Shown: one piece after another, positions 7,250-11,781 of the stretch
How positions within the stretch are numbered: position 1 is the first letter of the stretch
How the letters are laid out: each line of letters begins with the position of its first letter
Virus genome (UHGV): UHGV-0112510
Origin: a virus
Direction: 5' to 3' (one strand)
Length of the DNA: 25,380 nucleotides
Made by a program: the position numbers and the translations under genes
The notes under the pieces: model-generated
The model's database searches: none
Seen by the model: the letters and a program-made list of their open reading frames with translations, nothing else
Told to the model about the DNA's origin: nothing

Positions 7250-7573
7250 ATGAAGATGCCAGAAAAACATGACCTGTTAGCCGCCATTCTCGCGGCAAAG
7301 GAACAAGGCATCGGGGCAATCCTTGCGTTTGCAATGGCGTACCTTCGCGGCAGATATAATGGCGGTGCGTTTACAAAAACAGTAATCGACGCAACGATGT
7401 GCGCCATTATCGCCTGGTTCATTCGTGACCTTCTCGACTTCGCCGGACTAAGTAGCAATCTCGCTTATATAACGAGCGTGTTTATCGGCTACATCGGTAC
7501 TGACTCGATTGGTTCGCTTATCAAACGCTTCGCTGCTAAAAAAGCCGGAGTAGAAGATGGTGGAAATCAATAA
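7250..7573 (+). CDS. S: holin/antiholin, lambda S (class I, dual start)
   Basis: 107 aa, [34 protein letters not shown]..., essentially lambda S as remembered; Met1-Lys-Met3 dual-start motif. Confidence 0.95.
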
Positions 7574-8033
7574 TCAACGTAAGGCGTTTCTCGATATGCT
7601 GGCGTGGTCAGAAGGAACTGATAACGGACGTCAGAAAACCAGAAATCATGGTTATGACGTCATTGTAGGCGGAGAGCTATTCACTGATTACTCCGATCAC
7701 CCTCGCAAACTTGTCACGCTAAACCCCAAACTCAAATCAACAGCAGCCGGACGTTACCAGCTTCTTTCCCGTTGGTGGGATGCCTATCGTAAGCAGCTTG
7801 GCCTGAAAGACTTCTCTCCGAAAAGCCAGGACGCTGTGGCATTGCAGCAGATTAAAGAGCGTGGCGCTTTACCGATGATTGATCGCGGTGATATCCGTCA
7901 GGCAATCGACCGTTGCAGCAATATCTGGGCTTCACTGCCGGGTGCTGGTTATGGCCAGTTCGAGCATAAGGCTGACAGCCTGATTGCAAAATTCAAAGAG
8001 GCTGGCGGAGCGGTCAGAGAGATTGAGGTATGA
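7557..8033 (+). CDS. R: endolysin, lambda R lytic transglycosylase
   Basis: 158 aa, [39 protein letters not shown]..., near-identical to lambda R as remembered. Confidence 0.95.
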
Positions 8034-8497
8034 GCAGAGTAACCGCGATTATCTCTGCTCTGGTTATCTGTATCATCGTCTGCCTGTCATGGGCTGTTAA
8101 TCATTACCGTGATAACGCCATGACCTACAAAGAGCAGCGCGATAAAAAAGTCAGTGAGCTGAAGCAGGCGACTGCCACCATTACTGACATGCAGCAGCGC
8201 CAGCGTACTGCTGATGCACTTGATGCTAAATACACGAAGGAGTTAGCTGATGCGAAAGCTGAAAATGATGCTCTTCGGCGCAAGCTTGATAATGGTGGCA
8301 GGGTGCTCGTCAAAGGAAAATGCCCTGTGCCATCCTCAGCCGAAACCTCCGGCGCCTCCGGCATGGGCAATGATGCCACCGTCGAACTCTCTCCAGTTGC
8401 TGGACGAAACGTTCTCGGTGTCCGGGACGGAATTATCCGCGACCAAACAGCACTGAGAACGCTTCAGGAATACATCAGGACGCAATGCCTTCGATGA
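8030..8497 (+). CDS. Rz: i-spanin Rz
   Basis: 155 aa; N-terminal TM ([18 protein letters not shown]) and first ~90 aa lambda-Rz-like; C-terminal third divergent. Confidence 0.85.
8250..8456 (+). CDS. Rz1: o-spanin Rz1 lipoprotein, embedded in the +1 frame of Rz
   Basis: [21 protein letters not shown]... with a lipobox (VAGC) and Pro-rich mature part ([11 protein letters not shown]); entirely within Rz. Confidence 0.75.
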
Positions 8498-8670
8498 TAG
8501 CGATAATTTTACTCATCATCCTTCACATCTGGCTCTGTAGACAGGGTGGTGATCACTTCTGGAGTGAATCCAGATTAAACATCTCATTGCTGATGCTTGA
8601 TATTGAGCATCTTGCGCGCGGTAAGGGGCTGCGTTGAGATAAGAGCCAGTCATTACAAATACCAGGATTT

Positions 8671-8694
8671 AGCCTCGCATTCGCGGGGTTTTTA
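8671..8694 (+). terminator. terminator-like hairpin downstream of the lysis cassette
   Basis: CCTCGC-ATTC-GCGGGG stem-loop followed by TTTTT (8689-8693); lies just upstream of the RBS of the 8718 gene. Confidence 0.4.
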
Positions 8695-8717
8695 TTCCCA
8701 ACTCCATAGGTGATTTT

Positions 8718-9197
8718 ATGACCCAGCATATTGGCGTAAAACTGATTAACGCCTTTCCGATGACGAGACAGGCATATAACGATTTTCGTGGCTGGCAGCT
8801 TCCTGCCGGAGAAAACGGCGAGGACGAAGGCTATCTGGTTGAATATCTGGATGGCGGAAAACCTAACACCGATCGCTTTGATGGCTACGTTAGCTGGAGT
8901 CCAAAAGAAGTATTCGAAAGGGCTTATCGTCCGGTATCAGGACTAAGTTTCGGCCTTGCCATGGAAGCGTTAAAACAGGGCAAAAGTTTGCAGCGGGCAG
9001 GATGGAATGGGAAAGACCAGTTTGTTTATCTCGTGAAAGGGGAAAAATTAGCGTCTGCGTTGGGTTATGGCTTTGGCGAATATGTTGGCGAGCCAACTTT
9101 CAATGACACGCTTGTATTGAAAAACTCACAGAACCGCCTTGCTACATGGGTTCCATCCATTGGCGACCTGATGGCTGAAGACTGGCAAATCATTTAA
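8718..9197 (+). CDS. hypothetical accessory protein; C-terminal half possibly DUF2829-like (Tad2-type fold), N-terminal part possibly DUF1737-like
   Basis: 159-aa clean ORF with ATG and upstream purine-rich RBS; motif ...FGLAMEALKQGKSLQRAGWNGKDQFVYLVKGEKL... recalled as DUF2829-like. The domain assignment is from memory, not a search. Confidence 0.7.
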   Translation: MTQHIGVKLINAFPMTRQAYNDFRGWQLPAGENGEDEGYLVEYLDGGKPNTDRFDGYVSWSPKEVFERAYRPVSGLSFGLAMEALKQGKSLQRAGWNGKDQFVYLVKGEKLASALGYGFGEYVGEPTFNDTLVLKNSQNRLATWVPSIGDLMAEDWQII

Positions 9198-9499
9198 CCA
9201 TGTAGTCATTACAAAGCCCATCAACGGGTGGGCTTGATAATGAAACCGGAATTTATTCTAGGCAACCAGTTACGGCAGTACCGCGAAACAACCCAAGCCA
9301 GTAAGTGGAGAAATAACACTGGCAGCCACTGAAAGATGAACCTCCTGCCTTATGGCAAAAAAGATTCTTTGTGGTGGCGGACTGATGGAAAGACATCGGT
9401 TATTGCAGAGACCATTCAATGAGTGGTCTCGACAATGGCTTATACCCTACACGGGATAACTTAACTGATATCCCTTTTAACGGATAAACGGAGCCAACA

Positions 9500-9742
9500 A
9501 TGGCAGAGATTATTCCCATGACTGAAGAACAGAAATTCCAGTTAGAGATTTACAAACTGGTCATGAACCAGAACGCAGCCGCAGAGGAAGCGTTTCAGTT
9601 CATTGGCACTGACGAGCTGAAGCTTGAGCTATTCAAAATTCACTTCCAGTCAGGTGGCGCTAATTCAGATATCACGACCCGCACAATCGAAGCGGTGCGT
9701 AAATCGAAGGAAGCGTTAGACCTGTTCACCACCGGAGCATGA
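9500..9742 (+). CDS. small acidic hypothetical protein (80 aa)
   Basis: ATG at 9500 with RBS ACGGAG (spacing ~6); predicted helical, net acidic; no recognised homolog. Confidence 0.5.
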   Translation: MAEIIPMTEEQKFQLEIYKLVMNQNAAAEEAFQFIGTDELKLELFKIHFQSGGANSDITTRTIEAVRKSKEALDLFTTGA

Positions 9743-9743
9743 T

Positions 9744-9923
9744 GTGAGCCGCGTAATCAATTTTGGTAAGGAGAAGAAATTCCCAATTACTCAAGAGCTA
9801 TACGAGCGGCTTGAAAGCGTTATTCATGATTATGATGGTGAAATCAGTTTATGCGAGGCGATTGGCACACTCGAATTGCTGAAGCAGTCACTGATTGAAA
9901 GCGCGAAAGAGTCCTCAGCCTGA
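9744..9923 (+). CDS. small acidic hypothetical protein (59 aa), GTG start
   Basis: GTG at 9744 one base after the stop of the previous ORF, GGAG at 9734-9737; translates (V)SRVINFGKEKKFPITQELYERLESVIHDYDGEISLCEAIGTLELLKQSLIESAKESSA; fills the gap to terS. Below the ORF-track cutoff. Confidence 0.35.
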   Translation: MSRVINFGKEKKFPITQELYERLESVIHDYDGEISLCEAIGTLELLKQSLIESAKESSA

Positions 9924-9940
9924 AATAACGATTAAGTGAG

Positions 9941-10369
9941 ATGAATATGGCGACTGAACCAAAAGCTGGTCGCCCCTCTGATTATATGCCGGAGGTGGCT
10001 GACGATATCTGCTCGTTGCTTTCTTCTGGCGAAAGTTTGCTGAAAGTATGTAAGCGTCCTGGTATGCCGGATAAGTCCACTGTTTTCCGCTGGTTGGCAA
10101 AGCATGAGGATTTTCGCGACAAGTACGCGAAGGCAACTGAGGCACGAGCTGATTCTATTTTCGAAGAGATATTCGAAATTGCTGACACTGCGATTCCAGA
10201 TGCTGCTGAGGTGGCAAAGGCAAGACTTCGCGTTGATACCCGCAAATGGGCGCTGGCCCGAATGAATCCCCGTAAGTATGGCGACAAGGTAACTAACGAG
10301 CTTGTCGGTAAGGACGGCGGCGCAATTCAGATTGAAACATCACCGATGAGCACTCTGTTCGGAAAATGA
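9941..10369 (+). CDS. terminase small subunit (Sf6 gp1-like)
   Basis: MNMATEPKAGRPSDYMPEVADDICSLLSSGESLLKVCKRPGMPDKSTVFRWLAKHEDFRDKY... HTH DNA-binding N-domain, recalled as Sf6-type TerS; alternative start ATG at 9947; stop overlaps the TerL start. Confidence 0.85.
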   Translation: MNMATEPKAGRPSDYMPEVADDICSLLSSGESLLKVCKRPGMPDKSTVFRWLAKHEDFRDKYAKATEARADSIFEEIFEIADTAIPDAAEVAKARLRVDTRKWALARMNPRKYGDKVTNELVGKDGGAIQIETSPMSTLFGK

Positions 10370-11781
10370 CCTCGATTAATCCTATCTTTGAACCGTTCAT
10401 TGAGGCGCATCGCTACAAAGTCGCCAAAGGCGGTCGAGGTAGCGGTAAGTCATGGGCAATTGCGAGGCTGCTTGTTGAAGCGGCGCGTCGGCAGCCTGTG
10501 CGCATACTTTGCGCTCGTGAGCTGCAAAACAGTATCAGCGATTCGGTAATTCGGTTGCTTGAAGACACCATAGAGCGGGAAGGGTATTCGGCTGAGTTTG
10601 AAATTCAGCGTTCCATGATTCGTCATCTCGGAACGAATGCTGAATTCATGTTCTACGGCATCAAAAACAACCCGACGAAGATTAAATCGCTCGAAGGCAT
10701 TGATATCTGCTGGGTGGAAGAAGCGGAAGCGGTAACGAAGGAATCATGGGATATCCTGATACCAACCATCCGCAAGCCGTTTTCAGAAATATGGGTGAGC
10801 TTTAACCCTAAGAACATCCTCGACGATACCTATCAGCGATTCGTCGTAAATCCTCCTGATGATATTTGCCTGCTGACAGTGAACTACACCGACAACCCGC
10901 ACTTTCCTGAAGTTCTCCGTCTGGAGATGGAAGAGTGCAAACGCAGAAATCCGACACTATATCGTCACATCTGGCTTGGTGAGCCAGTAAGCGCAAGTGA
11001 TATGGCAATCATCAAACGTGAATGGCTTGAAGCCGCAACCGATGCGCACAAGAAACTCGGATGGAAAGCGAAAGGCGCTGTTGTCTCTGCGCATGACCCA
11101 TCAGATACAGGGCCAGATGCTAAAGGTTATGCATCGCGTCACGGTTCGGTAGTTAAGCGCATTGCCGAAGGTCTGCTGATGGACATCAATGAAGGTGCTG
11201 ACTGGGCAACTTCGCTGGCTATTAAAGACGGCGCTGACCACTATTTGTGGGATGGTGATGGTGTTGGTGCGGGGCTGCGCAGACAGACAACGGAAGCATT
11301 CTCCGGTAAGAAAATCACCGCCACGATGTTCAAGGGCAGCGAATCGCCATTCGATGAAGATGCACCGTATCAGGCCGGAGCATGGGCTGATGAAGTCGTA
11401 CAGGGCGACAACGTTCGCACTATTGGCGATGTGTTCCGCAATAAGCGAGCGCAATTCTATTACGCGCTGGCTGACAGGCTGTATCTGACATATCGGGCGG
11501 TTGTCCACGGTGAGTATGCAGACCCCGACGACATGCTGAGTTTCGACAAAGAAGCGATAGGCGAGAAGATGCTGGAGAAGCTGTTTGCAGAACTGACGCA
11601 GATTCAGCGCAAATTCAATAATAACGGGAAGCTGGAGCTTATGACTAAGGTCGAAATGAAGCAGAAGCTCGGTATTCCATCTCCTAACCTGGCTGATGCG
11701 CTGATGATGTGTATGCATTGCCCGGAGTCGGCTGCGCAACCCGACTATTCCAGTTACTCAATTCCTTGTGGTGTAGGTTGA
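10366..11781 (+). CDS. terminase large subunit (ATPase/nuclease), Sf6/P22-type headful
   Basis: 471 aa; Walker A KGGRGSGKSWA, Walker B-like ICWVEEAEAV; C-terminal nuclease region. Confidence 0.95.
   Translation: MTSINPIFEPFIEAHRYKVAKGGRGSGKSWAIARLLVEAARRQPVRILCARELQNSISDSVIRLLEDTIEREGYSAEFEIQRSMIRHLGTNAEFMFYGIKNNPTKIKSLEGIDICWVEEAEAVTKESWDILIPTIRKPFSEIWVSFNPKNILDDTYQRFVVNPPDDICLLTVNYTDNPHFPEVLRLEMEECKRRNPTLYRHIWLGEPVSASDMAIIKREWLEAATDAHKKLGWKAKGAVVSAHDPSDTGPDAKGYASRHGSVVKRIAEGLLMDINEGADWATSLAIKDGADHYLWDGDGVGAGLRRQTTEAFSGKKITATMFKGSESPFDEDAPYQAGAWADEVVQGDNVRTIGDVFRNKRAQFYYALADRLYLTYRAVVHGEYADPDDMLSFDKEAIGEKMLEKLFAELTQIQRKFNNNGKLELMTKVEMKQKLGIPSPNLADALMMCMHCPESAAQPDYSSYSIPCGVG

Follow-up and report, generated by a model that had tools for sequence, protein, structure and literature searches.

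We analyzed a stretch of 25,380 nucleotides (the window) from UHGV virus genome UHGV-0112510 and, within it, a 743-bp region (positions 9198-9940) at the lysis-to-packaging junction in the late operon of a P22-like (Lederbergvirus) phage or prophage. The region holds an untranslated spacer followed by two small open reading frames (ORFs), here called ORF80 and ORF59 after the length of their products in amino acids (aa), and ends at the small terminase gene (coordinates in Table 1). It is 90-97% identical in 202 phage records; P22, BTP1, Sf6 and Kapi1 all have annotated homologues at the same late-operon position, between the lysis cassette and the small terminase. A reading of this region from sequence alone had correctly given the position, length and start codon of both ORFs, including the GTG of the second, and a spacer of about 300 bp (302 nt, with no supported ORF). 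The same reading held that neither protein resembled a known one, which proved wrong: both belong to catalogued phage families. The spacer, on the other hand, carries two copies of a hairpin motif that is apparently undescribed and is conserved as a structure at the 3' ends of many unrelated genes.

To judge by its profile match, ORF80 is the already catalogued orf80 of P22 (hkbM in HK620, gp67 in Sf6), a member of Pfam family DUF2560 in the same position as its relatives and with no difference from them. Residues 5-76 align with positions 1-72 of the 72-position profile PF10834 (E-value 1.1e-43, 147.7 bits for a cut-off of 25), and the protein is 96-100% identical to many phage copies. The gene has an ATG start behind a GGAG at 9490-9493, and the product is acidic (isoelectric point 4.72; 13 Asp and Glu against 8 Lys and Arg). 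The ratio of nonsynonymous to synonymous substitution rates (dN/dS) is 0-0.06 against P22, BTP1, Sf6 and Kapi1, relatives picked by nucleotide similarity, and 0.09-0.35 when the comparison is made with divergent relatives in Serratia, Hafnia and others. Seventy-six different nucleotide sequences encode 86 identical ORF80 proteins, 36 of the 40 variable sites falling at codon position 3, in a set in which 80 IMG/VR loci had been chosen for high ORF80 protein identity. A scan of species-representative genomes gave only six near-identical loci; the diversity described here was drawn from individual protein look-ups, and relatives at 61-75% identity retain the 80-aa length and the conserved motifs. 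From these substitution patterns, ORF80 is a genuine gene under purifying selection.

The DUF2560 family forms 73 clusters at 50% identity among 1.84 billion representatives and consists of stand-alone proteins of about 80 aa from phages of Enterobacterales. Long multi-domain matches in an exhaustive profile search were spurious repeat matches of cadherin-like type, and fusions to a GDSL lipase and a KDPG aldolase are apparently gene-calling artefacts. The AlphaFold2 model of ORF80 is all-helical, with four helices and a predicted local distance difference test score (pLDDT) of 69; structure and profile searches gave no informative sequence or fold relatives, and the comparison of its sequence profile with the PDB returned chance-level matches only. 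In P22, orf25, pid and orf80 have been swapped for resistance cassettes with lytic growth and lysogeny retained (10.1101/2023.08.15.553423), and a P22 orf25-orf80::KmR prophage yields viable particles (PMC11016777); orf80 is therefore accessory. Our literature search found no function for either the orf80 or the orf59c protein, mentions of DUF2560 being incidental, and the accessory-gene screen of Silas does not cover the two genes. The 'orf80' of a Listeria TerI preprint is unrelated to that of P22. Identical or near-identical ORF80 proteins precede at least three types of small terminase (TerS) and two types of large terminase (TerL), which argues against a terminase-specific role. ORF80 may be a non-essential accessory protein, and its identity across phages with mosaic neighbors would point to a conserved host partner.

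DUF2560 proteins of Salmonella phages fall into two discrete allele classes, about 97-100% and about 44% identical to that of the window. The second class includes ST64T, phage L, ST160, Phi75 and UAB_Phi20, and is often over-extended upstream into the spacer by gene callers (orf-118 of ST64T); relatives at 36-39% occur in Klebsiella and Proteus phages. Several HK97-like siphophages (mEp235 [positions 1795-1878 of our locus L099], HK75, HK446, mEpX1 and mEp506) retain the spacer and the leader together with no more than the first 27-28 DUF2560 codons. The truncated form (PHROG 23132) is 93% identical and stands directly before HNH endonuclease and terminase genes; it is a mosaic joint inside the gene.

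ORF59 likewise is, by profile and position, an already catalogued gene: orf59c of P22, hkbN of HK620 and gp68 of Sf6. It matches phrog_3546 over its entire length (residues 1-59 of 59, E-value 5.3e-42) and is 96.5% identical to P22 orf59c, with the same position, the same GTG start and no difference from the family; no Pfam or NCBIfam family covers PHROG 3546, whose distribution is restricted to Enterobacterales. The start lies one base past the ORF80 stop codon, behind a GGAG at 9734-9737, and the product is again acidic (isoelectric point 4.81; 11 Asp and Glu against 7 Lys and Arg). Of 25 loci, 22 have GTG as this start after GGAGCATGAT, and the other three, which are divergent, have ATG at that position. 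Sixteen of 17 close relatives, at loci not selected on ORF59, give a dN/dS of 0.04-0.34; the remaining one, with seven differences only, gives 0.66, and two divergent relatives give 0.14-0.15 (we set aside the rows of Sf6 and locus L086, in which a one-codon deletion and a C-terminal frameshift raise the values). Judged in this way, ORF59 too is a genuine gene under purifying selection. Both the coding conservation and the conservation of the GTG start, which the sequence-only reading had proposed to check, are thus borne out, and neither ORF showed homology to structural or packaging proteins.

Both products had also been described as acidic and helical. The acidity holds for the two of them and the helical fold for the ORF80 model; the AlphaFold2 model of ORF59 is beta-alpha-alpha, with strands at residues 4-6 and 12-14, helices at 17-29 and 36-58 and a mean pLDDT of 74.7. 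Its best structural matches are almost all ribbon-helix-helix (RHH) proteins, with 43-49 residues superposed at 1.6-2.0 Å on solved RHH domains; the protein has a G-x-x-S turn ahead of helix 2 and invariant K11, K12 and T16 on the strand. ORF59 is thus predicted to have an RHH fold. It would share this topology with the RHH superfamily (Arc/MetJ/CopG, the N-terminal domain of TraM, and the ParD, MazE and TacA antitoxins), but it differs in having no detectable sequence relationship, a net acidic charge, no toxin partner and no identified operator; dimer formation and DNA binding are putative. We picture ORF59 as an optional dimeric RHH protein that does not mimic DNA but may bind it, as a regulator; binding to another protein is the less likely option.

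The gene is present in 25 of 97 DUF2560 loci, absent from about 75%, and co-occurs with several TerS types. Where it is missing, DUF2560 is followed directly by the small terminase or by other small genes, for example with products of 129 + 134, 43 + 56, 46 + 110, 128 + 114 or 169 + 48 + 111 aa. The next cistron starts 1-4 nt past the ORF80 stop codon in 64 of 98 loci (with the one-base gap to ORF59 in 23 loci), a spacing typical of translational coupling and suggestive of it; in the window, the small terminase starts 17 nt past the ORF59 stop codon. Occupants of the ORF59 slot elsewhere (loci L083, L010, L094 and L100, the last being orf-129/orf-134 of ST64T, and others) include a 128-129-aa protein with an HExxH motif (LVHECAHV) and a 134-aa protein. 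Further occupants are a basic 46-aa peptide and a protein of about 160 aa starting with MTTIAWDGK, whose N-terminus seems to resemble N-terminal-nucleophile hydrolases.

The hairpin at the beginning of the spacer (9214-9235, without a U-tract) had already been noticed, and it is real: with its outer stem it extends to 9206-9243 and folds at -19.1 kcal/mol (z -5.5 relative to shuffles). What had been missed is a second copy nearer to ORF80 (-23.2 kcal/mol, z -6.6). An allele alignment shows both hairpins to be copies of one 43-nt motif, laid out as AUUACA, a 2x2 internal loop, a 9-10-bp stem, a 3-6-nt loop and GAUAAUGG(CUU), in which the flanks AUUACA ... GAUAAUGGCUU are invariant. Under a covariance model of the motif (R1), copy 1 scores 59.7 bits on the + strand versus 19.0 bits on the - strand, and copy 2 62.2 versus 13.4 bits. 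With this model, the 25-kb window yields two copies and no more, each on the + strand, and the complete P22 genome yields one (40309-40351), which overlaps the beginning of orf25. In total, we collected 98 copies in 97 sources, of which 45 are distinct.

Substitutions in these copies follow the pairing closely. One-sided substitutions at five stem positions of copy 1 all keep pairing, as G.U on the + strand, and copy 2 shows compensatory double changes at 9405/9433, 9408/9430, 9410/9428 and 9411/9427, each in 19-22 haplotypes. In an alignment of 32 sequences (A3), 97% of cells are paired, 51 cells are compensatory and six of 14 pairs have changed on both sides, and none of 500 shuffles was as good. 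Over the 45 distinct copies, 98.6% of cells are paired and eight of 14 pairs have changed on both sides; here none of 500 shuffles reached any of five measures, and slid controls gave 35-49% pairing. G.U pairs make up 83 of 629 cells and include a U.G kept in 39 of the 45 distinct sequences, so that only the sense strand folds well. Serratia, Hafnia and other divergent prophages carry the motif directly 5' of DUF2560 with new, fully compensated stems. This pattern of substitution is strong evidence that the junction hairpin is a real, conserved base-paired structure of the sense strand only.

An Rfam scan of positions 8500-10500 on both strands gave no match at E <= 1, and hairpin sequence strings retrieved only unrelated primers from the searchable literature. 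The two hairpins are followed by GAUAAUGAAA and GACAAUGGCUU, with no U-tract, and do not qualify as intrinsic terminators; a promoter and terminator scan of 9198-9499 found no + strand site. A weak terminator-like site on the - strand (9362-9341) was rejected for want of a good stem. Other elements of the predicted folds were also set aside: a pairing of GGCUU (9437-9441) with the Shine-Dalgarno region of ORF80, present in the minimum-energy fold, has no covariation support, and substitutions that break pairing are common in, and speak against, the predicted outer helices at 9206-9211/9238-9243, 9248-9249/9319-9320, 9272-9274/9299-9302 and 9345-9348/9355-9358.

The spacer as a whole folds at -98.4 kcal/mol, versus -72.4 +/- 4.9 kcal/mol for shuffled sequences (z -5.3; none of 100 shuffles was as good). 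This low energy is due to the two hairpins; the sequence that separates them (9250-9398) shows no unusual structure (z -0.8). Positions 9324-9402 and the 62-nt leader 9438-9499 diverge from the window by 0.4-1.2% only, versus 13.1% at the four-fold sites of ORF80 (79 loci), and the leader is 99.4% conserved. Neither segment, for all its conservation, has coding support or an unusual degree of structure. Small ORFs of 34, 35 and 28 aa in the spacer and the equivalent of P22 orf25 were rejected, every one being broken by A-run indels in three of 44 haplotypes. The published text on the BTP1 transcriptome gives no non-coding RNA at the spacer site.

The same spacer is a site of gene insertion. 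In P22 and BTP1, a pid moron of about 630 bp stands in place of window positions 9459-9485: in BLAST comparisons, window sequences 9272-9458 and 9486 onward flank pid, with joints at 9458 and 9486. Likewise, pid has been located between orf25 and orf80, and PS34 has no insert there (Cenens 2013, PMC3573128). Gene 66 of Sf6 and other inserts enter at about 9398 (BLAST), and phages with rha have its stop codon directly next to 9272. By these alignments, the spacer of the window is the empty form of the pid site, a recurrent accessory-gene insertion site. Whole or in pieces, its sequence occurs in 206 phage records, among them HK97-like phages (mEp235, HK446, mEpX1), ES18 and Stx phages, and always between lysis or cargo genes and packaging genes. 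The annotated orf25 of P22 (NC_002371, 40329-40406; window equivalent 9420-9488) is probably not a gene: its ATG is part of the hairpin loop, the Sf6-type hairpin allele lacks this ATG, and the orf25 reading frame runs into the pid insert.

Table 1. Features of the lysis-to-packaging junction and of its neighborhood (window coordinates).
Feature	Position	Strand	Remarks
Holin	7250-7573		late region of window
Endolysin	7557-8033		late region of window
Rz/Rz1	8030-8497		late region of window
Terminator-like hairpin with T-run	8671-8690	+	about 175 nt past Rz
Cargo gene, 159 aa, C-terminal Tad2-like (DUF2829) domain	8718-9197	+	Pfam PF11195 and phrog_872
Untranslated spacer, 302 nt	9198-9499		no supported ORF
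Junction hairpin, copy 1	9205-9245	+	outer stem CAUUA/UAAUG, 2x2 internal loop; contains the 9214-9235 hairpin
Non-coding block between hairpin copies	9246-9398	+	3' part 9324-9402 (running past the block end) almost invariant
Junction hairpin, copy 2	9399-9441	+	4-bp outer stem, 2x2 internal loop, 10-bp upper stem, AAU loop, 3' flank GGCUU
6-bp hairpin followed by UUUU	9453-9474	+	-8.3 kcal/mol, z -3.4
ORF80 (P22 orf80 / HK620 hkbM / Sf6 gp67; DUF2560)	9500-9742	+	PF10834, PHROG 571
ORF59 (P22 orf59c / HK620 hkbN / Sf6 gp68)	9744-9923	+	PHROG 3546
Small terminase, Sf6 type	9941-10369	+	PF20901, E 1e-44; phrog_1482; start of packaging module
Large terminase	10366-11781		followed by P22-type portal

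The position of the hairpins relative to genes is no less regular than their pairing. Forty-eight of the 98 copies begin between -1 and +12 nt from the stop codon of the upstream ORF, and these ORFs belong to at least ten unrelated families, including Tad2-like, two Rha types, Sf6 gp66/N4 gp49, HK97 gp61-like, trypsin-like, DUF551 and several unknowns. The lambdoid phages that carry the hairpin span several morphotypes (P22-like, HK97-like, Stx phages, ES18). Three loci, Stx phage 2851 among them, join the copy 1 stem directly to the 3' flank of copy 2 and lack the intervening DNA, as expected from a crossover between the copies. We propose that the late mRNA carries the hairpin as an RNA element marking where cassettes end, most likely a processing or 3'-end-protecting stem-loop, through which the lysis and cargo messages could meet a different fate from the packaging and head messages; its conserved sequence may also supply homology for cassette swapping.

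Taken whole, the interpretation in which ORF80 and ORF59 are the known orf80 and orf59c, the hairpin is an RNA element at cassette ends, ORF80 is accessory and ORF59 is an RHH protein seems to us slightly better than an even bet. A number of observations weigh against it. Folded single-stranded DNA of the sense strand would yield the same covariation and the same G.T pattern as the putative RNA element. With no U-tract and no cleavage site readable from the sequence, a stabilizing or processing function is only the most parsimonious guess. The idea of a host partner for ORF80 draws on conservation alone, because the structural model is only moderately confident and its neighbors are uninformative; choosing IMG/VR loci by ORF80 identity inflates the count of identical proteins, although dN/dS against the nucleotide-selected phages is unaffected. 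ORF59 has no sequence-level link to RHH proteins, as no RHH Pfam family matches at E <= 1 and the comparison of its profile with the PDB, with chance-level matches only, shows none (a direct hhalign comparison with P22 Arc gave a probability of 1%), and a net acidic charge is unusual for a DNA binder. Finally, a gap of 29-79 nt follows ORF80 in 34 of 98 loci, and coupling is thus not universal.

More tentatively, and with rather less confidence than an even bet would imply, the hairpin may delimit exchangeable cassettes as a functional RNA element that is both an mRNA processing or stability signal and a crossover point, DUF2560 being the fixed first gene after the last hairpin. The motif AUUACA - covarying 9-10-bp stem - GAUAAUGGCUU might then be regarded, by analogy and just as tentatively, as a late-operon counterpart of attC or of the T4 PeSL cassettes. 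Alternatively, the hairpins could be purely DNA-level elements with no RNA function, either folded single-stranded recombination sites of the attC or IS200/IS605 kind or mere linker homology. Copies sit exactly at cassette ends, inserts enter beside copy 2, a crossover within the hairpin has deleted the inter-copy DNA in three loci, and folded single-stranded DNA tolerates G.T pairs as well. Yet no dedicated recombinase gene is linked to the site in the window or in the prophage loci examined, plain homology has no need of a covarying stem with 98.6% pairing, and it is without exception the sense strand, in an operon under heavy transcription, that folds. The motif is moreover confined to one intergenic zone, with one copy in P22 and two in the window, instead of occurring at all mosaic joints. 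On this evidence, we find a DNA-only element improbable.

For the ORFs themselves, the sequence-only reading had put forward DNA mimicry or inhibition of host defence or host enzymes, by small acidic proteins, which would here be expressed late. Part of its premise stands, since the two proteins are small and acidic and are not structural, P22 can do without orf80 under laboratory conditions, and the adjacent slot is a zone of counter-defence cargo that includes Tad2-like and Acb2/Tad1-hairpin family sponges; the invariance of ORF80 amid mosaic flanks would fit a conserved host target, and ORF59 is optional, as a typical accessory gene would be. The mimic idea itself fares badly: ORF59 is predicted to have an RHH fold, which belongs to DNA-binding proteins and antitoxins and not to mimics, neither protein answers to the type of Ocr or ArdA, with a strongly negative surface laid out like a DNA backbone or a related fold, the acidity is mild (net charges of -4 and -5), and no match to known anti-defence or mimic families, or to their solved structures, was found in Pfam, PHROG, PDB, NCBIfam or PADLOC. 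Both genes, furthermore, lie 3' of the last cassette hairpin, in the packaging translation unit and outside the hairpin-delimited cargo slots, and expression from the late operon would come too late against defences acting on entering DNA. An anti-defence function for ORF80 is possible given its Tad2-like and Acb2/Tad1-like neighbors, with nothing positive in its support; for the pair we judge it unlikely. Still less probable is a role as packaging accessories, ORF59 helping TerS at pac and ORF80 serving as a chaperone or regulator of terminase. Both genes do lie directly 5' of TerS across many genera, the start and stop spacing suggests translation coupled into the next cistron, and an RHH fold, as modeled, would imply DNA binding. 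However, one and the same ORF80, in many cases identical, is found ahead of at least three unrelated types of TerS and two of TerL, ORF59 is missing from about 75% of DUF2560 loci and found with several TerS types, P22 without orf80 is still viable, and HK97-like phages retain only the first 28 codons of ORF80. Those same truncated genes, which keep the leader, the Shine-Dalgarno sequence and 28 codons even where the rest is gone, would suit an ORF80 acting mainly in cis, as a leader cistron of little protein function that delivers ribosomes to the small terminase start; the next start 1-4 nt past its stop codon in 64 of 98 loci and the 99.4% conservation of the 62-nt leader agree with this. 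But purifying selection is strong on the whole protein, relatives at 61-75% identity included, and dN/dS values below 0.1 are not expected of a mere leader, which makes this explanation as poor a prospect as the packaging one.

The junction invites comparison with several known systems. The term moron is said to come from Juhala et al. in 2000. With respect to lambdoid morons such as P22 pid, the spacer of the window is the same site, filled by pid in P22 and BTP1 and empty as in PS34; it is not itself a moron, having neither a supported ORF nor, on the + strand, anything like a promoter or terminator, and the hairpin at the cassette end differs from a moron terminator in not being an intrinsic terminator. 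Stem-loops of the T4 PeSL type were reportedly called 'mobile regulatory cassettes' by Arbiol et al. in 2010. PeSL, attC, REP/BIME and the boundary sequences of HK620 and Sf6 resemble the junction hairpin in being short conserved stem-loops at the ends of variable genes, with recombination between copies, and REP stabilizers likewise lie at gene 3' ends within polycistronic messages. The hairpin sequence is not known to be related to any of them. A PeSL has a promoter, and attC has an integrase and a GTTRRRY core, whereas the junction hairpin has none of these; REP elements are dispersed around the genome, whereas the hairpin is confined to the lysis-packaging junction; and it is not among the boundary sequences annotated in the stretch of Sf6 examined.

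The ORF pair itself is ordinary, having been catalogued for more than 20 years, and the RHH prediction is a modest new annotation for orf59c, which gives this gene its first testable function. The hairpin motif is the more useful and interesting of the two subjects, as it marks the 3' ends of unrelated cargo, Tad2-like sponge genes included, at the very place of accessory-gene exchange in lambdoid phages. Control of mRNA fate by the hairpin, if real, would account for the differing amounts of lysis, cargo and head proteins that can arise from one late transcript; if the hairpin guides cassette exchange, it would provide a mechanism for mosaicism at the lysis-packaging junction. In either case, the hairpin is a practical landmark, and reading between its copies may lead to new accessory or counter-defence genes.

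The gene order around the junction is kept widely. Lysis genes, cargo, DUF2560, ORF59 or other small genes, TerS, TerL and a P22-type portal follow each other in prophages of Serratia, Shimwellia, Hafnia and Citrobacter type, and the prophages that share this order have three TerS types and two TerL types. The terminator-like hairpin upstream of the cargo gene presumably closes the lysis cassette when RNA polymerase is unmodified by the Q-type late antiterminator (the gene 23 product in P22). A rho-independent terminator is annotated at the matching position in mEp235 and ES18.

The cargo gene of the window is the last hairpin-terminated cassette ahead of the spacer, its stop codon lying 7 nt before copy 1. 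Residues 77-159 of its product match Pfam PF11195 (E-value 6.4e-22), and the N-terminal 76 aa have no Pfam match. The DUF2829 domain is that of Thoeris anti-defence 2. Kapi1 has a 173-aa variant of this Tad2-like gene, diverging over about window positions 9013-9174. In a Serratia marcescens prophage (JALPZJ010000010.1; locus L092, 3371-3652), a 93-aa protein encoded between the spanin gene and DUF2560 has a precomputed match to PF24729 (Acb2/Tad1-hairpin), which adds a second cyclic-nucleotide sponge family to the Tad2-like one at the lysis-packaging junction.

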